DNA of 30,025 nucleotides from a virus (taxonomy: Duplodnaviria; Caudoviricetes), in the IMG/VR virus record IMGVR_UViG_3300032290_001058, positions 1-30,025 of that record; one strand, written 5' to 3'. Position 1 is the first letter of the stretch; every line of letters begins with the position of its first letter. This document shows positions 2,508 through 28,693 of this stretch, piece by piece. The translations under genes and the position numbers were made by a program. The notes beneath the pieces were generated by a model. That model was not told the DNA's origin. It did no database searches and was given only the letters and a program-made list of their open reading frames with translations.

Positions 2508-2807
2508 TTACGAGCGCAACGCCTCGAGGAAATCGCGCGCCTGATCTGGCGTATAAATAATGCCGATTGGTGCCCCGAGCCAGGCAGCGTGCCACTCTTG
2601 TTGCCGCTCATTGAGCTTGCCGCGGGTATCTGGGTTTTTCACCTCTACCAGGCACGTTATACCGCGATATCCAACGAGCAAATCAGGCACGCCAGCCCCT
2701 GCATCATGCAATGACACTACAGACGCTCCCAGGGCTTCCAGGGTTGCTACAATGAGCTTCTGATTTGCATCTACTCTGCGCTTTTGGTACGCAAGCTTAT
2801 TTACCAT
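2508..2807 (-). CDS. VRR-NUC domain nuclease / Holliday junction resolvase-like (PD-(D/E)xK)
   Basis: RVDANQ..IV..LE.LGASV, GVPDLLVG, LVEVK, KLNERQQEW motifs. Confidence 0.85.
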   Translation of the reverse strand: MVNKLAYQKRRVDANQKLIVATLEALGASVVSLHDAGAGVPDLLVGYRGITCLVEVKNPDTRGKLNERQQEWHAAWLGAPIGIIYTPDQARDFLEALRS

Positions 2808-3840
2808 TTTGCAACGCCTCTAATGCACTCGGGTATTTGCCCGTATCTTGTAACCAGGCAATGACGGCTGCCTTTTCATGTACGCCATTGTATACCGGTC
2901 TGGGTAGCCCTGCATAGTACACACTGCCAGTAATCAATTTGCCAAACAGGCGCTGCAGTGTCTGGGTAGTGACATATTCGCGCGCGAATCGATCTAATAT
3001 GCCTTGGTACCAATCTTCGCCAGGCAGCGCGCGTTGATTCAGCCTGGGTACAACCCTCATGAGCTGATCAGCAACAAATGCCCTGTTGTACACATTGCCG
3101 TAACCCCAAACGCGCCCGATATAGGCAGGCTTGAGCGCTTTAATATTGACGCTCTCATGTATGCTAAAACCGTATGCCTTTAGCTCGAGCGCCCCAATAT
3201 AATCGCGCTTGCATTGCGCTACAATTTCCTGTAATTCGGTATTGAGCTTTTCAGGATTCGTTAACCGCAATGCATGCCCTTGCGCGAGCCAGTTGTATAC
3301 CGCCTCGATATCGTACGAGCGCCTGCCGCTTGGGTGCACCTCTACAGGCATCTTGCACAGCTTTACCCAGCTCCAAATTTGCTCTGTAGTGATCCCGAGC
3401 TCATCCGCAAGCATGGTAGCCGTTAAACCGAGCGCTGAATTATAGGTAACGCCGAGCTGCCGCGCTCGCTCGCATACAGCACGGGTAGTTCGCTTGAGCT
3501 TTTTAGCAATATCAGTTACATGCATAATGTGTATATTCATTGCTACAAACTGATCATGTTTCTTTGTCCAGGCGTTGCGTATGCCCTTCACACGGTAGCG
3601 TTTGAGCCTGGCATATAACCCGCTGTCCGTAATTCCGTAATACTTTGCTAGTAATGGTACGTTGTTATGAAACTTGCGCATATCCTGCATAAGCACGTCG
3701 GTATCATGCCAGGGCTTGCGCATTCGCGCCGTGCCGATTATTTTTGTTATCTTGTATTGAGAAATATTGAAATGTTGCATAGCTTCTTTTTGGGTATGCG
3801 TTTGTAAATACGTTCGCACCTCCCGATCGGTGTAGCTCAT
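2797..3840 (-). CDS. Multi-HTH DNA-binding protein (347 aa)
   Basis: HTH-like segments TQKEAMQHFNISQYKI and LLAKYYGITDSGLYARLKRY; Myb-like WTKKHD..DIAKKLKRTTRAVCERARQLG; MerR/Xis-like LTATMLADELGITTEQIWSW..RSYDIEAV. Confidence 0.7.
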   Translation of the reverse strand: MSYTDREVRTYLQTHTQKEAMQHFNISQYKITKIIGTARMRKPWHDTDVLMQDMRKFHNNVPLLAKYYGITDSGLYARLKRYRVKGIRNAWTKKHDQFVAMNIHIMHVTDIAKKLKRTTRAVCERARQLGVTYNSALGLTATMLADELGITTEQIWSWVKLCKMPVEVHPSGRRSYDIEAVYNWLAQGHALRLTNPEKLNTELQEIVAQCKRDYIGALELKAYGFSIHESVNIKALKPAYIGRVWGYGNVYNRAFVADQLMRVVPRLNQRALPGEDWYQGILDRFAREYVTTQTLQRLFGKLITGSVYYAGLPRPVYNGVHEKAAVIAWLQDTGKYPSALEALQNGK

Positions 3841-4238: not shown

Positions 4239-6259
4239 CGGCTTAATTCCTCTCGTAATGTATCAATCAGCGAGCGTGTTGGTAGCCAAATGCTCGCCAT
4301 ACGGTCAAACTCTTTTAGGTTGCCTACTGCCAGGGTTGCGCGCAATTGCTCGAGCCTATTCTCGGGTATCATCTGGGCAGCGGTATACCTCGGCAGCGGC
4401 TCGGCTGGCGTTACTGGCTCGGGTGCTGTTGGTGCTGGCTCTTTGCTCGGTTGCGCTTCGTATCCCTTGGGTACATAGGGTGCTACGCTCTTGAGCGCGA
4501 AATACTTACCGCTTGCATCTTGCTTTACATGCCCCGTGCCTTTAAGCCTATGCAGCAAATTGTGCGTGCTCTGTTTGCTTCTGCCGATTGCCTCGGCTAT
4601 ATCCTGGGCTCGCCAGTGTGTACCGTCTGCCAAATACTCGAGCACTGCTGCCCGCTCTTTGGTGAGTAAGAATGATTCAGGATCACCAATTACCTCATGA
4701 TGCGCACCGATGCTATTCCAAGTCAATAGCCGTTTGTCATCGCTCTCGATATCGCGCCCGCGTACGATTAATTCGGATTGGTTTTCATCGCCTGGGATTC
4801 GCGACAAAATAAACATACCTGAAACGCCGCCTGCGAGCCCAGTGGTGCCGCTGATTTCGTCGAATGCATCATCGCTTTTACTCTTGCGCGTGTGATGTAT
4901 GACGAGTATTGCGCAATGGTATTTCTCTGCAAGCATCGTCAACGGTTTTACCGCGTCGTAATCTTCACTGTAGGGATTTGCGTATTTTTCTCGAGGCGCT
5001 CGTATATTCTCGAGAATATCAACCACAACCAACACTGTATCAGGGTATTTCAATAGAAACGCCTCGAGCGCGTCGACAGCCTCGGCACCGCGTCCCCAAT
5101 TGGTAGCAATAATCAGGTTTTTCGGCTGCCCTTGGTTGTCTATTTCCATCTGGCGCAATCGCTGCTGCATACGTCGCTGATTGGATTCGAGATCCAAATA
5201 CAACACCGTACCTGGCTCTGTTTTGTATTTGCCGAATACGAGATCACCCCGAGCAACAGCCCGCGCAATGTGCGTACCTGCCCAGCTCTTGCGCGCCTTA
5301 GGCTTGCCAGCAAACACAAAACAGCCTTCTGGTAATATCTCTTCTACAATCCAGGTCAATGCAGCAAACTGTTTGCCCTCGAGCTCATCGGCTGTAATCA
5401 GCTCGTATGCCAGCTCGTTTGTGATTGCGAATTGCTCGGGTTTGAGCGCCTCGAGCATCTGCATACTATCAGCCTGGTATAGTTTTGCCCAGTCTGCCAG
5501 ATCACCGCCGTTGCCGAGCTGCATATCAACCGCGTATACAGACAATTTTGCATCTTGCATAGCTTTTACGGCTTTTGCCGTGGCTGCCCTGCCTGCCTTG
5601 TCGCAATCGAGCGCAACCACAATGCCGCCAGCCCAAACGCGTGCCAGCTCTGCAAGTAGGCTTGCTGTTGGTGCGCGCTCCCCGCCGCCTGCCAGTGTTA
5701 TTGCAGGTATACCGAAATGCTGGGCTACTACCGTACTGGCTTCGCCATTGCAGTACACAAGCGGCTGCTTGGTTGCCCGTGCCATTTTGATTGCCTCGGG
5801 TAGCTTGTACCAGCACGCGGTAAACCCTTTTTCGTTTGTGTATGTATCCCCGTCGCGATAATCGAGAAACCGGTAACGTGTGCCGTTTGTTGTTTGTATG
5901 CTGAGGGCAGGTCTACGCATATGCCGACAGGCACGAAACCCTGCAGCCGCGAATACGTCCCAATGTACGCCTTTTTGCGAGGCGTAATCGTGCTCATTGG
6001 TATAAACCCTCTTGCTGCTGTCTATCGTCGATCCTGGTGGCTCTATGCCCCAATCTGGCATACGTCGTACCAGGTCGTACAAACTGCCTGATTCTTGGGT
6101 TACATGATCAATCCAGGTGCCGTGCTCATCCCCTGTAATGTGCAAGCTAAACCCGTTGCTGTCGCTGCCTGGTCTAAATGGTGAATTGATTCGATACTGA
6201 TTATTACTGGCAGGCTCGAGTTTGAGCGCTGCCAGTACCTGTGCTGCTGTGCTGTCCAT
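4235..6259 (-). CDS. Primase (Toprim)-helicase (RepA/AAA_25, SF4-like) fusion with C-terminal wHTH
   Basis: Toprim: YCNGE, ALDCDKAG, GGDLADW. Helicase: Walker A GKPKARKS, VLYLDLE, Walker B LVVVD, ILVIHHTRK, ISGTTGL, GRD. HTH: AQDIAEAIGRSKQSTHNLLHRL. Start placed at 6259 after AGGGTAC RBS. Confidence 0.88.
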   Translation of the reverse strand: MDSTAAQVLAALKLEPASNNQYRINSPFRPGSDSNGFSLHITGDEHGTWIDHVTQESGSLYDLVRRMPDWGIEPPGSTIDSSKRVYTNEHDYASQKGVHWDVFAAAGFRACRHMRRPALSIQTTNGTRYRFLDYRDGDTYTNEKGFTACWYKLPEAIKMARATKQPLVYCNGEASTVVAQHFGIPAITLAGGGERAPTASLLAELARVWAGGIVVALDCDKAGRAATAKAVKAMQDAKLSVYAVDMQLGNGGDLADWAKLYQADSMQMLEALKPEQFAITNELAYELITADELEGKQFAALTWIVEEILPEGCFVFAGKPKARKSWAGTHIARAVARGDLVFGKYKTEPGTVLYLDLESNQRRMQQRLRQMEIDNQGQPKNLIIATNWGRGAEAVDALEAFLLKYPDTVLVVVDILENIRAPREKYANPYSEDYDAVKPLTMLAEKYHCAILVIHHTRKSKSDDAFDEISGTTGLAGGVSGMFILSRIPGDENQSELIVRGRDIESDDKRLLTWNSIGAHHEVIGDPESFLLTKERAAVLEYLADGTHWRAQDIAEAIGRSKQSTHNLLHRLKGTGHVKQDASGKYFALKSVAPYVPKGYEAQPSKEPAPTAPEPVTPAEPLPRYTAAQMIPENRLEQLRATLAVGNLKEFDRMASIWLPTRSLIDTLREELSR

Positions 6260-17341: not shown

Positions 17342-18892
17342 TTACGGATTCACGCCGTATACAAATGCCTCTGCCTGGGTAACGTCGCCGCCCCAACGTG
17401 CCGTAACAAAAATAGCCGTTTGGTAATTTGGCTGGTATACGTACGGATTGCGGCTAACCTCGAGCCCGAGATTTTCAACAAACGCGTAATAGCTCCAATT
17501 ACCGAAAATGATAGGCTTGTTACCCGTGCCCAGTACTGCAATTTTGTCCGTAACCGCAATAGGCTTGCCGTACAGGTTATCAATTGAGCCCATTGGTGTT
17601 GGTTGGAAGCTGTAGAAATTGCCTTGCAGCGCGCGAATTGCGCCCAGCGTGCTGTTTTGCATAACCCAGCCCGTTGCGTTGCCATCATCAACGTACCATG
17701 CAGGCAGCTTGTATACGATGTTATGTACGTCGGTTTGATCGATACCGCTAACGCTTGCAAGGGTTTCGCTGACTGTAGCACGTGTGAGCACGCCGTATGG
17801 CTGGCTTGAGCCCGTGCCGTTAATCATGTAATCATTGAGGTGCCGAGCGTACGCGCGCCCGATTTCGCGGGTAAGAAATCCCTCGAGATCCATTGCATTG
17901 TCGCGCAACAGCTGATTAGAAATCTTCATTGCAAGAGATGCGGTATAGACTGTGATTGCAGATTGTGCGAACGTCGGCTCATCAAAATTTGCAGCGCCTG
18001 ACTCTGCAACAAATGCAAAATTTGCCTTTGCATTCTGGTCTGCAATGTCGAAAATTTGACGATCAGTAGTGTAACGCTGAATGCCAAGCTTTGCACCAAT
18101 CCAGCTCTGATCACGCTTGTCGATAACCTGATTGTAAAAATCACGTGGCACCAAAAAACCGCCGTTTGCGCCCGTTCCTTCTACCAGGGTTGCCTTTGCT
18201 GCAACCTCATCACCTGTTTTCAGGTAATGCACAATTGATTCGGATTGCTCGTTGCTAAACCCGCGGCTGGTCAGCTTCTTGGTTGCTGGTGCCTGGCGCG
18301 TGCTGTCTACAACGCCGCCTGCTACTGGCTCGCCTGCAGTGTCTGCGAGAATCTCGAGCACTGCAGCCTTCATTTCTTCTTTGTTCATGGTGTTTGTACC
18401 CTTTGGTGTTGAATGATCTGTATATGCATAAGCGTACGTATCTGCAGCGGCTGTAATGCCCTTTGCTGTAGCTTTTACGTCGCTGGTTGCCGTGGTACGT
18501 GGCTCGGCTGGTGTTGGTGTTAGGCTGATTTCGCCTACTACCCAGCGTTTGAGCTCTCCTGATTCTCGCACTACTAAATGCGATAACGCGCCCGTTGACA
18601 GCCCGAGCGCCCCGCGCTTTACGAGCTGCATAACCTGTTTGGCGTATTTGTCGCGCCTGTCTAGCTCAATTTCAACGTCTATACCGTCGTCATCGGGTGC
18701 CCAGGCTTTTACAACCCCAATCTGCCGCCGCAAATTCCCAAGACTGTGATCGTAGTACACAGGCATACCGATAAACGAGCGCGTTTCGCCTAAATCGGTT
18801 TGTGGTGTAAACGTATCGCCTTGCAGATCACGCCCGCCCCAAACAATGCCCTTGCCCTTGAGCGTATACTCACCAATTGCCTTTACGCTCAT
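17342..18892 (-). CDS. HK97-family prohead protease - major capsid protein fusion
   Basis: Protease: RDLQGDTF, YYDH, GLSTG, EISLTPTPAEPR. Capsid: GGFLVP, FVAES, ISNQLLRD, NGTGSSQPYGV, LYGKPI, IIFGNWS, ARWGG. Confidence 0.93.
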   Translation of the reverse strand: MSVKAIGEYTLKGKGIVWGGRDLQGDTFTPQTDLGETRSFIGMPVYYDHSLGNLRRQIGVVKAWAPDDDGIDVEIELDRRDKYAKQVMQLVKRGALGLSTGALSHLVVRESGELKRWVVGEISLTPTPAEPRTTATSDVKATAKGITAAADTYAYAYTDHSTPKGTNTMNKEEMKAAVLEILADTAGEPVAGGVVDSTRQAPATKKLTSRGFSNEQSESIVHYLKTGDEVAAKATLVEGTGANGGFLVPRDFYNQVIDKRDQSWIGAKLGIQRYTTDRQIFDIADQNAKANFAFVAESGAANFDEPTFAQSAITVYTASLAMKISNQLLRDNAMDLEGFLTREIGRAYARHLNDYMINGTGSSQPYGVLTRATVSETLASVSGIDQTDVHNIVYKLPAWYVDDGNATGWVMQNSTLGAIRALQGNFYSFQPTPMGSIDNLYGKPIAVTDKIAVLGTGNKPIIFGNWSYYAFVENLGLEVSRNPYVYQPNYQTAIFVTARWGGDVTQAEAFVYGVNP

Positions 18893-19680
18893 TGCTTACC
18901 TCGCAATACGTATAACAGCTGGCTTGCAAGCTCTTTTACGTGCTTGGGTTGTTCCATCGGCATTGCTGCAGTTTCTGCCATTGCCTCGAGCATTTCGCCT
19001 GGCTCTTCCATCTCGGCAGGCTCTTCAGCTTCTGGCATTTCTTGCGTTGGTGTTTGGATTGCTCGCAACATCCATCGCAATTTTTGATGATAGCCTAATC
19101 GATCCTGTAGGAAATTCTGTACTGCAAATTCACCTGCAATGCCTGCAAAATAAATGCCGCCCTGCAAGAGATCGAGCATACGCATATTTTCAAGCGTAAT
19201 GCTTGCAAGCATCTCGGGTAGGCTCGCTTCCTCTGTCATGGTATCTACAGGCTGGGCAGCGAGAAGCGCATAAATCGTTGCAGGCGTTTTGAAACCTAGC
19301 GCGCGTATGTATTCGGCAGTTGGATCAATGCCCGCCTCGAGCGCTTCGTACAGCTCCCCGAAAAATGCATGATACTGAGGAAAATTTTCGCCTTCTAAAT
19401 TCCAGTGCGCTGCCGATGCCTTGTACCATAGGCATACCGTTGCCCCGAGAATTTCGCGCAATTGCCCTGGCAGGTCTGCAGCCTTGACAGCTCGCACCGC
19501 GTCGGTTTCTGCCTGTCGGCTGTTTACCTCTTCGATGTCCTGCATATCGTCGCCTAGGTCTGCAAAATAACTTTTCATCATCTCGGCATGCGCTGCCGTT
19601 GCACCTGCATGTTCGAGCACTGCCTTGCGTGCTGCCTTAATTAGTTGTACGTCGCTTGCGCTATGTCTGCTGCCTGCCAT
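18889..19680 (-). CDS. dps: Dps/ferritin-like protein with N- and C-terminal extensions
   Basis: HWNLEGENFPQYHAFFGELY..IDPTAEYIRALG..P and C-terminal HQKLRWML. H92/H104/D119/E123 match the Listeria Dps ferroxidase ligand spacing (H31/H43/D58/E62). Confidence 0.9.
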   Translation of the reverse strand: MAGSRHSASDVQLIKAARKAVLEHAGATAAHAEMMKSYFADLGDDMQDIEEVNSRQAETDAVRAVKAADLPGQLREILGATVCLWYKASAAHWNLEGENFPQYHAFFGELYEALEAGIDPTAEYIRALGFKTPATIYALLAAQPVDTMTEEASLPEMLASITLENMRMLDLLQGGIYFAGIAGEFAVQNFLQDRLGYHQKLRWMLRAIQTPTQEMPEAEEPAEMEEPGEMLEAMAETAAMPMEQPKHVKELASQLLYVLRGKQ

Positions 19681-19707
19681 GTTGTCACCTCATGCCTAAT
19701 TAGTGTG

Positions 19708-19716
19708 ATAATACCA
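19708..19716 (-). promoter_or_regulatory. Extended -10 promoter upstream of the dps-capsid genes
   Basis: Minus strand TGgTATTAT in the short intergenic gap, followed by GAGGT RBS. Confidence 0.55.
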
Positions 19717-19719
19717 AAC

Positions 19720-20193
19720 TCATGATTTAAACGCGTTTTGCACAGCATCTGCAATAACGCGCTGAATAATCCCCGATGCTTGCATTTCGGCTGCAACGTC
19801 GCTGCCCTTTTTCCAGCGCCCGCGGTGTATCTGGCTCTGCTGATCTCCTACAACATACTGCGAGTATGTCGCTGTGCTGATAATCGATACATCACCAATT
19901 TGCTCTTTCATAATGACGTATGAATTATTCAGGCGTTGCGTTGATTGCCAGGGTAACCCGTTGCCGCGCCCGCGTAGGTATTTTTTCATCTTACCCATTG
20001 CAAACATACGTTTTACGAATCGCTCTTGTTTCGCGCTCACCCATTGCATCGAGCCGTCGGCTGGCTCGGGTGGTTTCTCTTTGTTCAGCTTGCTTTTTGC
20101 AATGTCTGCAATAACCGCAATTGCTGCCGCCTGGGCTGCTTTTGCTTTTGCCGTTAAATGCAGGGCTGCATTCTCTACGATAATTTTTGTCAT
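19720..20193 (-). CDS. Putative HK97 gp10-like neck/tail completion protein
   Basis: Basic protein; SAKQERF, TQRLNNSY, ATYSQYVVGDQQ..IHRGRW pattern. Confidence 0.45.
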   Translation of the reverse strand: MTKIIVENAALHLTAKAKAAQAAAIAVIADIAKSKLNKEKPPEPADGSMQWVSAKQERFVKRMFAMGKMKKYLRGRGNGLPWQSTQRLNNSYVIMKEQIGDVSIISTATYSQYVVGDQQSQIHRGRWKKGSDVAAEMQASGIIQRVIADAVQNAFKS

Positions 20194-20417
20194 ACGTCTA
20201 ACGTGCCTTCTGGGTATACGTCTGGCTCGTATTCCAATACTTGTATATTTAGTGCTTCTTGAGCGTCGATAAGATGTAGATATGCATCATTACCAATGCC
20301 AGTAATAACCGATACATACAAATTTATGTTTGCTACTAATTCTGCATCACCTTCCAGCTTTTGTGTTGCTTGATTCCAGACAGCATTAAAATTGCCTTGT
20401 TTTGCTGTAAATTTCAT
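20190..20417 (-). CDS. Small acidic protein, candidate immunity protein for the MuF C-terminal domain
   Basis: 75 aa, low GC, ATGA-coupled to the stop of the portal-MuF fusion. Confidence 0.55.
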   Translation of the reverse strand: MKFTAKQGNFNAVWNQATQKLEGDAELVANINLYVSVITGIGNDAYLHLIDAQEALNIQVLEYEPDVYPEGTLDV

Positions 20418-23401
20418 TTGCCGCCATCCTTTACGATTTGTGCAAACAGTTCTATTAATCCTGTATCTTTGTTTGTTGGTATCAATGCAATATCAGTAAT
20501 AGCCATTGTCAGCACCTCGGGAAAATTACCCGAAATTTTCTGTATGTAACTCGGATAAATACGAAACGTATATGCAGAATCTGTAGCATCTAAATATGTA
20601 CTGCCAGAAATACCAAAATTTTGTGATCTTAGGCTAACTGGTTTTTCACCTGCTGTTCTCATTGCTGCAAAATCGTTTGTTGCTCGTACGCCGTACTGCT
20701 GATGATCTTGTAACGCATGCATAGATTCATGCACAATTGAAGATGCATCTGCATTTTTGTGCCCTGTCATAATTCCGCCGCCCATCGATGCATTTAGTGT
20801 TGATTGTCCTGCAGTAGCTTTATATACAATGTTGAACGGTTTGCCGCTGTCAGGCGCAATACCTACAGACAACTGTATTAATTCGGTTATTCGTGCTTGT
20901 TGTGCCTTGTTTAATTTAGCGCCTGCAAATGTAATATTTGCCGTTGCTGGTGTTGGGTGTTGCAAATCTTTTAATACAGATTTGTATACTGCTTCTTCTC
21001 GTGCTTGTAATGTCGCTTGAATAGTTTGCTGTCTAGCAAATTCTGCCCAGTATGCTTGACTTGCTGCTTCATATTCAGGCGAATTATAGCCGTATGTTTT
21101 TGCAGTTTGCCCCAATGCTTTTTCTAATTGTAACCTCGTGCCGCCTACTTTATCCCAATCTGCAGCAGATCGAGAATCAATTACAAGATCAGCCGGTACA
21201 GCATCTTTTATATACTGGGCAATCTCGGCAGCATCTCGCTGCAATAGTGGCACCTCGGCAGGCGCTGGTATTGGTGCCGTTGCCTCGTCTACCGTCAATT
21301 CCTCTACAGGCGTTTCGGCTGGCTGTGTGATGCTGTCTACATACTCAAGCCCCGTATCACAACGGCAGTTTACATGAGCTGGCGCGCCCTGGCTAATATC
21401 TTGATCACCGGTATACACACTAGCCCATAAATCATCGGTTAACCCGTCGAGATCAGCGCACATTTGGCATACTCTACGATCTTTTTCGGTATTCCAAATG
21501 CGCACTACAGAAATACCGTTCGAGCGTGCCAAATCTCGCACCTGCAACGTTTGCTGTGATGCCGCGCGCGTCGGCTCGGTAAACGCAATACGGCTTGCGC
21601 GTAGCTGCCCAAACATCGACAGTTGCTGCATAATGTCGGTTGCCGTTGTGCCAGGTGTAACCATGGTTGTCTCGATTACTTTATCAACGTATTTTTTTTC
21701 GGTTGCGCTCAAATCGATTAGAAATGGATTCCAGTATTTATCGAGGTATGTTGCCCCGTGTGCTTTTATTCCTTGCTCGATTAGGGCTGCTGATTGCTCA
21801 TCTGCCATGCCGCGTATAGGCTGTACGCGCTCGGCTCCTGCATCGAGCACCGTATCTGCTACTGATTTATCAAGTATGTTGCGTAGATCGGTATCGATGC
21901 CGCTATAATCGCCTGCAGCAATTTTCTGGCTAACGTCTATGTTGCGTTTCTCGAGCTTCTTTACGATGCTCTTGTATACCTTTTGTTCGCCTGGCGTCAT
22001 ATCAGCGTAGGTTAGCTTGAGCGAATCAAACAGTGCTACGATTTCATATTTTTTTTTTACGTCGCTCAATTCAGTATCAATGTAATCGAGCATGTACTGT
22101 GGCAATACATCGCTGGTAAACTTTACGGCTGCTGGCTTGCCTGGCTTGTGCCGAGCAAGGGCTTTAGCCTGGTATCGCTCAAGCTCTTGTACGCGCTTCT
22201 GGGCAGTGTCGGCTATTGCTGTACGTTCGTCAGGCATTGCAGGCGCTGGGGTGTTTACAGGCGTGCCAGTGTCAACGTTTACGCCGCCGTCGGTATCCTG
22301 TTGGATAACAGCAGGCAGCCCGAGCGCTTCCTCGATATTATCGTAGCCCAGCTGTTTCATTGCGGCAGCTAACGGTAGCCCAGCTTGTACCAGCAATACC
22401 AGGCTGTTCGCGCGCGCGGCTTCGTCTACCTGAAACACATCAAGTTTTTCTGGCAAAAACTTAAACTGATATTTCAACGTACGAAATAATTGCTCATTAA
22501 GCACGCGCTCGTAAAATGCCAGCCGAGGCACAATCGTTTCACGCCAGAATGATTGCCGATCACTATCAGCCGTAGCATAATTTGCCGCGCTGGCTTCAAT
22601 CATGGTACGAGGTACCCCAAACGTGCTGACGATGTTCATCACCGCGCGCTCTTGTATTGGTACCATGTCCATCTGATCGAGCGGAAATGTCACAATTTGG
22701 GCATTCACCTGCCCGCGGAAAAAAAACGTTTTAAACGCGTTGCTGACGTTTTCAACGTAGCGCGTCCAATGGCTTTTCATTCGCTCGAGCTCGGGAGGTG
22801 TAATACTTTTGTCGAGGCTCAACACCAATGCAGGCTGTGCGCCGTGTTCGAAAAATGCCGAGGCAAACCGCTCGAGGTAATACGCAAGCTGGGCAGATTG
22901 CAACGCTACCCGCGCTGGGCTAACTTCCTCATTGATATCGTTTTTAATGCTCGGCTCGTGGAAATACACAATATCGGCTGCTGTCCAGGTTGCATGTATT
23001 TGCCCGTCGATTTTCTGGGTAAATCGCAAGCCTGTAAGGTAATCGGCACCTGTCATCATTTCGGGGTGAAATGTCACCTCGACAGATCGAGGATTAATAA
23101 ACTGAAATCCATACAGTACGCGCCCTCGATACAAGCGCAGCCAAAATGCGCGCCCTACCAACATAAGCGCGCGCTCGGTTTGCTGTATGAGATTCTCAAG
23201 CGGTGTAGAAAATGGATAATCGACAGGTAGCCCAGCGCGAATCAATTCATATGGTACCGTGCCGAGCGCATCCGCGCGCAAATTGATAGCACGATAGTAC
23301 ATCGGTACCTTTTCGTATGCATCCAGGGTGCCGTATAATTCGCCTGCCTTTTTGGCAATGCTATACCAGCCTGGTATTGCCTCGATTGCTTTAAAATCCA
23401 T
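20414..23401 (-). CDS. Portal - MuF (SPP1 gp7-like) - HExxH zincin-like fusion (995 aa)
   Basis: HK97-type portal aa ~1-350 (AINLRADAL, SPARVA, FFEHGAQP, FGVP, NYAT, FWRETIVP). MuF: RASRIAFTE, W.TEKD.RVC..C..LDG, PAHVNCRC (H676). C-terminal HESMH (H891) and PEVLTM (E962). Confidence 0.88.
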   Translation of the reverse strand: MDFKAIEAIPGWYSIAKKAGELYGTLDAYEKVPMYYRAINLRADALGTVPYELIRAGLPVDYPFSTPLENLIQQTERALMLVGRAFWLRLYRGRVLYGFQFINPRSVEVTFHPEMMTGADYLTGLRFTQKIDGQIHATWTAADIVYFHEPSIKNDINEEVSPARVALQSAQLAYYLERFASAFFEHGAQPALVLSLDKSITPPELERMKSHWTRYVENVSNAFKTFFFRGQVNAQIVTFPLDQMDMVPIQERAVMNIVSTFGVPRTMIEASAANYATADSDRQSFWRETIVPRLAFYERVLNEQLFRTLKYQFKFLPEKLDVFQVDEAARANSLVLLVQAGLPLAAAMKQLGYDNIEEALGLPAVIQQDTDGGVNVDTGTPVNTPAPAMPDERTAIADTAQKRVQELERYQAKALARHKPGKPAAVKFTSDVLPQYMLDYIDTELSDVKKKYEIVALFDSLKLTYADMTPGEQKVYKSIVKKLEKRNIDVSQKIAAGDYSGIDTDLRNILDKSVADTVLDAGAERVQPIRGMADEQSAALIEQGIKAHGATYLDKYWNPFLIDLSATEKKYVDKVIETTMVTPGTTATDIMQQLSMFGQLRASRIAFTEPTRAASQQTLQVRDLARSNGISVVRIWNTEKDRRVCQMCADLDGLTDDLWASVYTGDQDISQGAPAHVNCRCDTGLEYVDSITQPAETPVEELTVDEATAPIPAPAEVPLLQRDAAEIAQYIKDAVPADLVIDSRSAADWDKVGGTRLQLEKALGQTAKTYGYNSPEYEAASQAYWAEFARQQTIQATLQAREEAVYKSVLKDLQHPTPATANITFAGAKLNKAQQARITELIQLSVGIAPDSGKPFNIVYKATAGQSTLNASMGGGIMTGHKNADASSIVHESMHALQDHQQYGVRATNDFAAMRTAGEKPVSLRSQNFGISGSTYLDATDSAYTFRIYPSYIQKISGNFPEVLTMAITDIALIPTNKDTGLIELFAQIVKDGGK

Positions 23402-27048: not shown

Positions 27049-27458
27049 TCGTCTGTATCCCGTTCTATGGTGATCGGCTCGCCATGGTAATAGGCTGGCA
27101 TCGTTAGCCCTTTTTCCCAGGTAGGCTCGCTCGCTCGCAAGTGATTGAGGTTATATAGCAAATCTTCGTACGGCTGCTGGGTATCGTGTGCAAACTTTAC
27201 ACACATATCAAGCCAGTAATCAAACTCGATATTTTGGCGTACCGATTGCAGCTGCAGTTGTAGTGATTTGTTCACATGCATTGCTGCAATAAATCGCAGG
27301 CTGTAACGTTTCTGCAGTGTACGTTTGGCGTATATCTGTATCGAGGTCGGTTGGTTAGCTGTCGGCTTAATCTCTACCCATTCGGATTGCTTTGCCCAGC
27401 GTCTATCAACCAGTATGCCATTGCCTACATATACCTCTTGTTTGTGCCAGCTCGGCAT
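27045..27458 (-). CDS. Hypothetical protein (137 aa)
   Basis: Coupled to neighbours by TAATG and ATGA overlaps. Confidence 0.7.
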   Translation of the reverse strand: MPSWHKQEVYVGNGILVDRRWAKQSEWVEIKPTANQPTSIQIYAKRTLQKRYSLRFIAAMHVNKSLQLQLQSVRQNIEFDYWLDMCVKFAHDTQQPYEDLLYNLNHLRASEPTWEKGLTMPAYYHGEPITIERDTDE

Positions 27459-28693
27459 TATGTACCAGCCCTTCTAATGTTTGTGTACGGTGCTTGTACG
27501 CGCTTAAATGTCCAGCCCTTGGTACGTAAAAAACAACGTAGCACGTTATCGGTACAACCCAGGATTTCGCGCGCCTCTCGTATGGTTTTGGTTGCGTACC
27601 ATTGTGGATCAGTAGGAAAATGCAATAATTCAGGCGTGGGTAAATCCTGATACTTGTCGATAAATGTATACCCATGCCTACGAATGAAATACCGTATTTG
27701 TTTTTGGTTTGATTTGAGCTCGGTAATCAATTGCGCCATGGTGCGAGTAGCGTAATACTCGGCATCCCTTGGAAATGCCAGCGGTTTTGCTTTTGGGTAT
27801 ATCTGTTGGTATTTGATATTGCGAACACGCATATAATTGCGCACCGCGTGCTGAGTCATCCCGAGCGCGTCGCAAATTTGCTCTACGGTGCGCACTGCAT
27901 ACCAGTCTGCATCTTGCGGCATGGTTTCTACTCGATTTGCATACGGCTGCCTGGTTTTACGAAACGGTATACCCCTCGAGGTGAGAAAATGCCGAATTGC
28001 CGAGCCGCTGTACCCGAGCATAATTTCTAATTGCGGTATTGTTTTGTGTTTGTACAATTCTGGGTCACTGTCGTAAATCTGATCGATTTGCAAACGTTTC
28101 GGATTTGGTACAAATGTGTACCCGCGTTTGTAAATGTGATTGTGTATGGTTTTTCGCTCTACTCCTAACTCGGCTGCCGCTTGAGCTAGGGTACGAGTTG
28201 CATACCATTGCGGATCTGTTGGGTAATCGATTGCGCGTGTATTTCTGCCAAATGCTACAAGCTTTTTAAACTTGTACCCATATCGCGTCATATGCTTATA
28301 GGCAGCATCACGGCTGCAACCCATATCTGCACAAATCTGCATGATATTGCGCGTTTCATAGTATGCAGGGTTTTTGCTCCAAATGCGCCCAGTAACGTAT
28401 AGTGCATATTTGGGCGCCTGGGCTTTTGGTGCTGGCTCTTTTGGTTTCTCGGCACGCGCTGCCATCCGTCGATAATCGCGGATATCCGAAATGCCGAGCG
28501 GTTGCGCACCGTTCGCGCGTAGCCCTTCAATTTCGCGCATATGGTACGGTATGTCATCTTCTGGCACGTTCAATAGCACAGCCTTAAACCATGCTTCGTA
28601 CCCGCTATGCTGCAGCGTTGCTATTACCTGATCGGTGTACCTGAGATCGTCGCGCCCTGTCAACGCCTGCTGTATGTTTTTGTGCAATCCCAT
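27458..28693 (-). CDS. Tandem six-HTH repeat protein (411 aa)
   Basis: Six ~50-aa repeats with consensus [FY]PxDPxWYAxRTxxQxxxxLGxSxxAIxxxxxxxG[YI]xF. Confidence 0.8.
   Translation of the reverse strand: MGLHKNIQQALTGRDDLRYTDQVIATLQHSGYEAWFKAVLLNVPEDDIPYHMREIEGLRANGAQPLGISDIRDYRRMAARAEKPKEPAPKAQAPKYALYVTGRIWSKNPAYYETRNIMQICADMGCSRDAAYKHMTRYGYKFKKLVAFGRNTRAIDYPTDPQWYATRTLAQAAAELGVERKTIHNHIYKRGYTFVPNPKRLQIDQIYDSDPELYKHKTIPQLEIMLGYSGSAIRHFLTSRGIPFRKTRQPYANRVETMPQDADWYAVRTVEQICDALGMTQHAVRNYMRVRNIKYQQIYPKAKPLAFPRDAEYYATRTMAQLITELKSNQKQIRYFIRRHGYTFIDKYQDLPTPELLHFPTDPQWYATKTIREAREILGCTDNVLRCFLRTKGWTFKRVQAPYTNIRRAGT

Follow-up and report, generated by a model that had tools for sequence, protein, structure and literature searches.

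Why would a tailed bacteriophage encode a Dps protein, a mini-ferritin, directly upstream of the gene for its capsid protein? The question is raised by the virus record IMGVR_UViG_3300032290_001058 (Duplodnaviria; Caudoviricetes). Its 30,025 bases, referred to below as the window, are a complete virus record with direct terminal repeats. An earlier note on this DNA had read the two genes as an encapsulin-like pair of cargo and shell. We consider it probable (roughly 60%) that the Dps gene encodes an optional cargo of the phage head, which would be tethered into the prohead by its C-terminal helix and trimmed by the head protease. Packaging into the head, taken on its own, is likewise probable from the sequence evidence given below.

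The Dps gene encodes a carrier with extensions at both ends

The product of the gene, here called the carrier, is composed of four parts:

18889 to 19680, minus strand: carrier gene, 263 amino acids (aa); module C, Dps, acidic linker, and terminal helix
19543 to 19680, minus strand: module C, aa 1-46, with an RHS...LGDD helix; family-wide, also in relatives without Dps
19054 to 19479, minus strand: Dps (mini-ferritin) core, aa 68-209, with H92, W93, H104, D119, and E123
18946 to 19053, minus strand: acidic Pro/Glu linker, aa 210-245, predicted to be disordered; net charge -11, predicted local distance difference test (pLDDT) score below 50 at residues 213-243
18892 to 18945, minus strand: basic amphipathic helix, aa 246-263, a predicted prohead-targeting signal; net charge +3, predicted helix at 246-259 with pLDDT of about 55

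The Dps domain of the carrier is intact. The Pfam family Ferritin (PF00210) matches aa 73-209 with 60.4 bits against a curated cut-off of 24.5, PHROG 3636 matches the carrier Dps with an E-value of 2e-25, and the best sequence match of the core in the PDB is Dps of P. aeruginosa (8ff9, E 7.5e-12). Two NCBIfam Dps equivalogs score below their cut-offs for the carrier (NF006975, 30.3 against 114; NF041388, 36.8 against 170). The AlphaFold2 model of the core has pLDDT mostly above 90 (81-97 in ten-residue blocks), and its helices, residues 70-94, 100-127, 136-141, 154-182, and 185-209, form a four-helix bundle with a short BC helix. Foldseek superposes the model onto solved Dps structures with root-mean-square deviations (rmsd) of 1.5-2.1 Å over about 142 columns. 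Residues H92, H104, D119, and E123, which we take to be the inter-subunit ferroxidase ligands of Dps, are invariant among 23 aligned sequences and align with those of solved Dps; the ferroxidase residues are retained in 31 of the 35 Dps sequences of the family. The ratio of nonsynonymous to synonymous polymorphism (pN/pS) of the core is 0.20 among eight close relatives. The Dps core with its four ligands described in the earlier note is thus borne out by the profile matches in Pfam and PHROG, the sequence match in the PDB, and the predicted fold, and so are the N-terminal extension of about 67 aa and the acidic linker with its amphipathic terminal helix.

In module C the LGDD motif is invariant, and in other loci the module is accompanied by a different, HiPIP-like cargo or by none. 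It has no Pfam match, and aa 1-50 gave no usable match in the ESM Atlas. The carrier is acidic, with a net charge of -3 in aa 1-66 and of -19 in the whole protein (isoelectric point 4.7); only the 18-residue end is basic. A basic terminal tail such as that of the DNA-binding Dps subtype is absent from the carrier. Its net charge makes DNA binding unlikely, and a DNA-condensing role of the carrier Dps was rejected on these grounds.

The carrier and protease-capsid genes overlap by the four nucleotides ATGA, as the earlier note had stated. The ribosome-binding site of the protease-capsid gene, positions 18898-18902, sits inside the last codons of the carrier gene, which encode the terminal helix.

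Dps and a HiPIP-like module are exchanged in one gene slot

Searches with the capsid gene returned 209 records, which collapsed to 120 distinct loci, and the proportions among them are biased by the queries. The gene in the position of the carrier, the slot gene, encodes a polyprotein with at most four modules, out of a set of six labeled A to F in this analysis. Two to four modules occur in 13 architectures among 47 representatives (for example CD, ABC, ABE, and BCE), and no folded module is universal. The slot contains a HiPIP-like module with four cysteines at 67 of the 120 loci, Dps at 25, a degenerate Dps at four, neither at five, and both at none; ten slot genes are truncated, and nine were left unassigned by the script. 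Most of the unassigned loci are contigs cut short, frameshifted genes, or a single chimera; L124, the distant L147, and two direct fusions are also among them.

Near-identical phages exchange Dps and HiPIP-like cargo. The DNA of locus L098, which contains Dps, is 85-91% identical to that of L099 and L105, which contain the cysteine module, on both sides of the cargo, and is unalignable across the cargo. On a quick capsid tree of the 47 representatives, the Dps label changes three times, each change being required by branches with good support, and the cysteine label changes five times; L115, with a degenerate Dps, was labeled "none" on this tree. L115 (positions 4639-5955) belongs, with L117, L119, L230, and P0050, to a clade whose Dps-like domain has lost all four iron ligands, gained cysteine, and stayed in the slot.

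The alternative cargo is predicted to be a HiPIP-like iron-binding fold with a 4Fe-4S cluster. Residues C53, C56, C70, C83, and W86 are invariant in 18 sequences of the module. Three HiPIPs are the best PDB matches of its profile, with weak E-values of 0.014-0.18, and Pfam PF01355 matches three of the 18 modules at E ≤ 0.1 (best 1.9e-5), the first member reaching 21.3 bits against a cut-off of 22. One of five AlphaFold2 models is confident (pLDDT 90.5; the others 41-44). For this model the top 17 Foldseek rows are HiPIPs (best E 7e-3), as are the top seven VIA rows, with Z-scores of 4.2-6.0 and rmsd of 2.5-3.7 Å over 54-63 residues. The module is also present in 718 longer proteins and occurs twice in 28 of the best 120; P0176-P0203 contain two tandem copies, some of them joined to DUF5872 or DUF5824.

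Some loci depart from the two-gene arrangement. At L252 (72-974) and L253 (2660-4831), modules C and B are joined directly to the protease-capsid chain, without an intervening helix; L252 additionally holds an unrecognized domain of about 70 aa. Predicted-structure matches of module B fall in clusters with portal and prohead-protease domains. At L124 (1695-3053) the slot is filled by an unrelated gene, presumably DNA methyltransferase-like from its motif, and no carrier module is present in the fetched locus. At L249 (59-778) the carrier end is joined, as judged by eye, to a SecY-like sequence, which is probably an assembly chimera.

A terminal helix common to the slot genes

The terminal helix is amphipathic and has a net charge of +1 to +4 in 45 of the 47 representatives. 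A profile of the helix scores at least 5 bits on the end of the slot gene in 111 of the 120 loci, whatever the cargo, a count that is partly circular because the profile was built from 47 of them. The same score is reached by two of 528 other reading-frame ends, both of which are mis-assigned carrier genes. Among the ends of 142 Dps proteins that do not belong to the family, the nine with the best profile scores all came from fusions to head proteins. Scores above 3 bits were obtained for five of 32 such head fusions, none of 49 other long proteins, and none of 61 short ones. Prediction of a complex of the last 36 residues of the carrier with two copies of the delta-capsid protein scored 0.00 with controls that were not folded, and it weighs neither for nor against binding.

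The protease-capsid gene and predicted processing of the carrier

The gene downstream of the carrier encodes a protease, a scaffold-like delta domain, and the capsid protein in one chain. The features relevant to assembly and processing are:

17342 to 18892, minus strand: protease-delta-capsid gene, 516 aa; PF05065, TIGR01554, and partial NF045541
18473 to 18892, minus strand: S78 prohead protease domain, approximately aa 1-140, with H49 and S99; PF04586 at E 8.5e-4, short of the cut-off, when aa 1-164 are taken alone, and PHROG head-protease matches
18386 to 18403, minus strand: predicted nested in-frame start M169 (ATG 18386-18388) preceded by Shine-Dalgarno-like AAGGGT (18398-18403); the product would be a delta-capsid protein of 348 aa
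18194 to 18388, minus strand: short domain resembling a delta (scaffold) domain, aa 169-233, up to the predicted maturation site K233-A234, from the alignment
19480 to 19485, minus strand: K66-A67 of the carrier, a predicted site for the prohead protease directly in front of the Dps core, from K-[AST] conservation

Protease residues H49 and S99 are kept in all 47 representatives. M169 opens a conserved helix and is present in 44 of the 46 representatives with the anchor motif. Pairing with the anti-Shine-Dalgarno sequence at -4 kcal/mol or lower was found for 44 of 44 nested methionines and for 28 of 460 other ATGs. The nested start may thus provide the bulk delta-capsid protein, with the long product supplying the protease.

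A K-[AT] pair precedes the GG[SFY] motif of the capsid N-arm in 47 of 47 representatives, and similar sites flank the modules of the slot gene. K-[AST] stands before Dps in 11 of 11 sequences, before the HiPIP-like module in 31 of 32, before module C in 32 of 35, before module B in 19 of 28, and at the start of the mature capsid protein in 47 of 47. The background is 12-15% (65 of 557 windows inside modules, and 124 of 818 background windows). The pattern points to cleavage at the lysine sites flanking the modules.

A protease that is fused to the capsid protein would not need a targeting helix of its own, and the helix ends the passenger gene instead. Similarly, a capsid gene with its own delta domain and nested start would need no separate scaffold, which would explain how a protease-type end helix became free for passengers.

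Dps proteins of other phages

A profile search of viral contigs with Dps gave 140 relatives, of which the best 80 were fetched. The extended form of Dps occurs at 30 of these 80 loci, in all 30 directly upstream of the same protease-capsid gene. Neighbors were scanned at 18 loci with a short Dps: in T4-like genomes two of these genes separate the small from the large terminase gene, three others lie no more than two genes away from a PHROG "head protein", and the rest are found amid metabolic or unassigned genes. The T4-like arrangement, at L030 (1462-3938) and L046 (3404-5126), has a free-standing 144-aa Dps, and the same gene lengths recur in many other loci. Tails and capsid-adjacent position go together, and phage Dps generally needs neither.

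An exhaustive search gave 5,463 Dps-like proteins. The 150 listed contain 81 long ones outside the window family, and 64 of 86 long Dps-bearing proteins were submitted to PHROGs. Among the 81 long proteins listed, 32 are fused to a prohead protease, portal, or MuF (23 by Pfam protease, one by MuF, and eight by PHROG). With the first alignment, none of the longer forms (805-2295 aa) had been found at E ≤ 0.001, weak evidence in that the exhaustive search later recovered such fusions. Dps-protease fusions are already in databases, because UniProt records titled "Prohead protease" match the Dps fold of the carrier. Descent of the window Dps from the protease-fused group was considered and is unsupported by a weak tree without a cellular outgroup.

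Some of the longer proteins have additional domains. P0057, P0087, P0112, and P0126 are Dps-protease fusions with HAD phosphatase, AAA_33 kinase-like, or RelA/SpoT domains. P0037, P0039-P0043, and P0046 are long Lys/Glu-rich proteins that end in Dps and contain many [ILV]xE motifs. [ILV]xE is the motif at which T4 internal proteins are cut by gp21.

Genome setting

The genes of the window's minus strand are arranged in the order amidase, small and large terminase subunits, a 995-aa portal-MuF fusion, two small genes, the Dps gene, the protease-capsid gene, an adaptor, and siphovirus-type tail genes; Pfam and PHROG annotation also places a tape measure gene near the protease-capsid gene. The Dps gene, which the earlier note had placed first after a putative promoter, is not the first of the head module: it is preceded on this strand by the genes for the terminase subunits and portal-MuF and by two small genes. 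The signals before the carrier gene and the upstream context are:

19708 to 19716, minus strand: extended -10-like motif TGGTATTAT in the 39-nucleotide gap before the carrier gene, a putative promoter; one mismatch to TGnTATAAT
19686 to 19691, minus strand: Shine-Dalgarno-like GAGGTG, five nucleotides before the carrier ATG, from the sequence
20414 to 23401, minus strand: portal-MuF fusion, upstream part of the head module; PF04860 and PF04233
23425 to 24630, minus strand: terminase large subunit, which marks a DNA-packaging phage; PF03237 and PF17289

The extended -10 promoter proposed earlier has stood in part. The motif is present, and a similar one occurs in the same gap in most of 11 inspected relatives, which is the sole support for the putative promoter. 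However, such matches are not above chance in the window (30 observed against 35.7 expected), and a sigma-70 promoter scan found no promoter at the carrier gene.

The portal-MuF protein (20414-23401, minus strand) has about 300 extra C-terminal residues that match no known family, and 686-aa forms without them occur in relatives L021, L023, L024, L028, and L045. Two proteins encoded at 27458-28693 and 2797-3840, minus strand, contain several short helix-turn-helix repeats each.

A contig of run X1, possibly the source sample itself, shows no difference to the window over positions 18097-20300, and a relative in run X4, from lake water, is mostly 90-95% alike. No RNA run is among the 20 runs listed, and of the runs with a small share of the DNA only X4 was used for habitat. 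No record of an isolated phage covers 80% of the capsid gene, and among 50,697 such records the Dps is matched only by that of S-EIV1, where it lies away from annotated head genes. On the host side there is one 33% match in an Anaerolineae genome bin, and distant matches were found in six of the 401 genomes from its phylum, whose fetched loci lack a carrier module; these give a weak hint of a host in the Anaerolineae phylum. Three genomes of that phylum (L263, L267, and L268) encode similar proteases fused to capsid proteins; that of L267 has a 330-aa N-terminal extension, and those of L263 and L268 have a different capsid type.

A predicted route of the carrier into the head

Under the favored explanation, the carrier would be made late and translationally coupled to the protease form. 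Its helix may bind the delta domain or the inner capsid wall of the prohead, by analogy with HK97, and the head protease would cut the carrier at K66. The folded acidic Dps would then stay in the head, trapping ferrous iron and peroxide near the DNA. Cellular Dps is a dodecamer, and there would be twelve helices per cage if the carrier forms one.

The fate of a packaged carrier after maturation is the least certain point. Retention in the head has about an even chance, ejection as unfolded monomers is doubtful, and degradation or loss is doubtful to the same degree. A Dps cage measures about 9 nm and, when folded, could not leave via the portal and tail channels; one such cage would occupy approximately 1.2% of the genome's volume. 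Protection of the packaged DNA is the preferred function, yet it is the weakest step of the mechanism, because the cargo can be lost or inactivated or give way to a fold that carries electrons, and because a protein of this charge is unlikely to bind DNA. It is only a tentative suggestion that mature virions hold iron, via Dps or a 4Fe-4S HiPIP loaded into every capsid by the carrier helix, and that this iron would shield the genome or enter the host at infection.

Several observations weigh against a head-cargo role. A short Dps (142-178 aa) without the carrier architecture occurs at 50 of the 80 fetched loci, with no match to the head proteins of the window nearby, and none of the 18 with scanned neighbors adjoins a protease or major capsid gene; the synteny that the earlier note had proposed to survey thus holds for the extended forms but not for these. 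The family Dps do not nest among the protease-fused Dps, although the tree is weak and has no cellular outgroup. The helix is short and moderately conserved (pN/pS 0.50, against 0.48 for the linker, in eight close relatives), its last glycine codon doubles as the ribosome-binding site of the next gene, and it resembles protease ends weakly (16.4 bits at best, with 27 of the 32 head fusions at or below 3 bits). K-[AST] precedes module F in only two of 17 sequences and Dps in only five of the 32 outside head fusions, so that the motif is family-specific; the window carrier has no K-[AS] site between the Dps core and the helix, and the representatives are related, so the counts are not independent. 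Four loci contain a Dps-like domain without ferroxidase residues and five contain neither cargo; the cargo is dispensable, and iron handling is therefore not required. Since a HiPIP is an electron carrier and not an iron sink, the swap does not show that the two cargoes have the same function. Outside the family, P0096 carries both Dps and the HiPIP-like module.

Alternative explanations

It is possible that the carrier never enters the head and acts in the cytoplasm as an auxiliary oxidative-stress protein, its place in the late operon providing strong expression and translational coupling to the protease, and its tails being relics of an ancestral head polyprotein. Such a role would agree with the short free-standing Dps of many phages in other contexts, with the modest conservation of the helix and its overlap with a ribosome-binding site, and with the accessible text of two publications, in which phage Dps is a host-side protectant (PMC8008677, PMC6669764). 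We nevertheless regard it as unlikely: the helix persists across cargo types and across capsid proteins down to 34% identity, the K-[AST] sites at module boundaries agree with the site at which the capsid protein would mature, and sister modules are fused to head proteins. The earlier suggestion that this Dps is not a stray gene is upheld by the 30 of 30 extended loci upstream of the protease-capsid gene, the constant helix, and the 32 of 81 other long Dps proteins fused to head proteins.

The same position and tails could belong to a structural co-scaffold. Module C and the helix would then organize the assembly of the capsid or the recruitment of the portal, with Dps or the HiPIP-like domain as an oligomerizing hub or a passenger removed at maturation. 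The slot gene is present in nearly every family locus, one clade keeps a Dps-like domain without iron ligands, and an acidic linker followed by a terminal helix is the usual plan of scaffolds, whose termini bind the inner capsid wall according to the available part of PMC12749128. Nonetheless, no folded module is universal, the small HiPIP-like domain is an unlikely geometric substitute for a dodecamer, the capsid gene has its own delta-like domain and nested start, the slot of L124 holds an unrelated gene, and iron ligands are kept in 31 of the 35 Dps sequences, all of which makes a co-scaffold improbable. An essential dodecameric scaffold core, a stronger form of the scaffold-core role offered in the earlier note, was rejected, as relatives replace, lose, or inactivate Dps and the delta-like domain belongs to the capsid gene.

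An encapsulin system, or a transitional form between a phage head and an encapsulin, is very improbable. The resemblance that suggested it is present: the gene for a ferritin-like cargo lies directly upstream of that for an HK97-fold shell, and its product has a terminal peptide joined by a flexible linker, an arrangement shared with the core operons described in the accessible text of 10.1101/085266, and an origin of encapsulins from tailed-phage capsids has been proposed (10.1101/2021.03.18.436031, as far as its available text shows). However, the shell of the window belongs to PF05065/TIGR01554 and not to PF04454, the family that defines family 1 encapsulins in the latter text; PF05065 alone matches at E ≤ 0.01. 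Its nearest solved relative by sequence is Rcc01687, a gene-transfer-agent-type HK97 capsid. Terminase, portal, protease, and tail genes surround the shell gene in a complete phage genome, whereas the available text of 10.1101/085266 specifies no phage morphogenesis genes within 10 kb. The shell family and the phage context refute encapsulin membership and lend no support to the possible evolutionary link raised in the earlier note.

Comparison with known systems

By analogy, HK97-type protease targeting is a closer model for the carrier than an encapsulin. The window has the same protein families in the same order as HK97/D3-type heads (portal, S78 protease, and PF05065 capsid), with a delta-like domain ending at a lysine site. 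Duda, Oh and Hendrix reportedly described, in 2013, a C-terminal capsid-targeting signal in the HK97 protease. Prohead 1 of HK97 packages about 60 proteases, as given in the available part of PMC12749128. The window differs from HK97 in that protease and capsid protein form one chain, inside which a nested start is predicted, and in that the helix ends a separate, protease-free polyprotein with a Dps or HiPIP-like domain.

Compared with family 1 encapsulins that carry ferritin-like cargo, the likeness, limited to the parts of the sources available, lies in an iron-handling gene directly upstream of an HK97-fold shell and in a tag on a linker. The window system differs in shell family, phage context, protease processing, and DNA packaging, its cargo is Dps, and its tag consists of some 15 residues in a basic amphipathic helix. 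The carrier has the fold and the His-His-Asp-Glu set of cellular Dps (P. aeruginosa 8ff9, Bacillus 1n1q and 1jig, and V. cholerae 3iq1). In contrast to them, it has long tails at both ends and a net charge of -19, with no basic DNA-binding tail after the predicted cut.

Polyvalent proteins (Iyer et al. 2017, PMC5512222) are, in the text available, likewise mosaic multidomain products of virion genes that are predicted to be packaged and cut by peptidases. The modules of the carrier are small and metal-binding or unnamed, and it has no peptidase; no conflict-type enzyme or embedded peptidase was matched by Pfam in the window carrier or the proteins of 17 relatives, although the unnamed modules A, B, C, and F could hide an enzyme. 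The main text of PMC5512222, as available, contains neither "dps" nor "iron". Dps is already known from phage genomes in free-standing form (Gratiaviridae, Flandersviridae, Lactobacillus myophages, and cyanophage S-EIV1). In contrast to the carrier, these proteins are read as host-side enzymes, with no head-module coupling or tails described in the available parts of those reports. A literature search at the level of listings and abstracts, including few subscription papers, found no published description of Dps or HiPIP as phage head cargo; supplementary domain tables could list fusions. The protease-free carrier and the Dps/HiPIP-like swap in the head module are new here.

Implications

Phage Dps is described in print as a host helper. 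If the carrier is loaded into the head, virions would hold an iron chemistry of their own, which would matter for their survival in oxic water, for the amount of iron held by viruses, and for the question of how the loading of cargo through terminal peptides could predate encapsulins. Just two adjacent genes, one candidate tag, and one candidate cut site make up this small system, and the natural variants of the slot (Dps, HiPIP-like, inactive, empty, and directly fused) provide ready controls. If the iron cargo slot is real, phage heads would be iron compartments that reached the encapsulin design independently, and the helix would be a portable loading tag.

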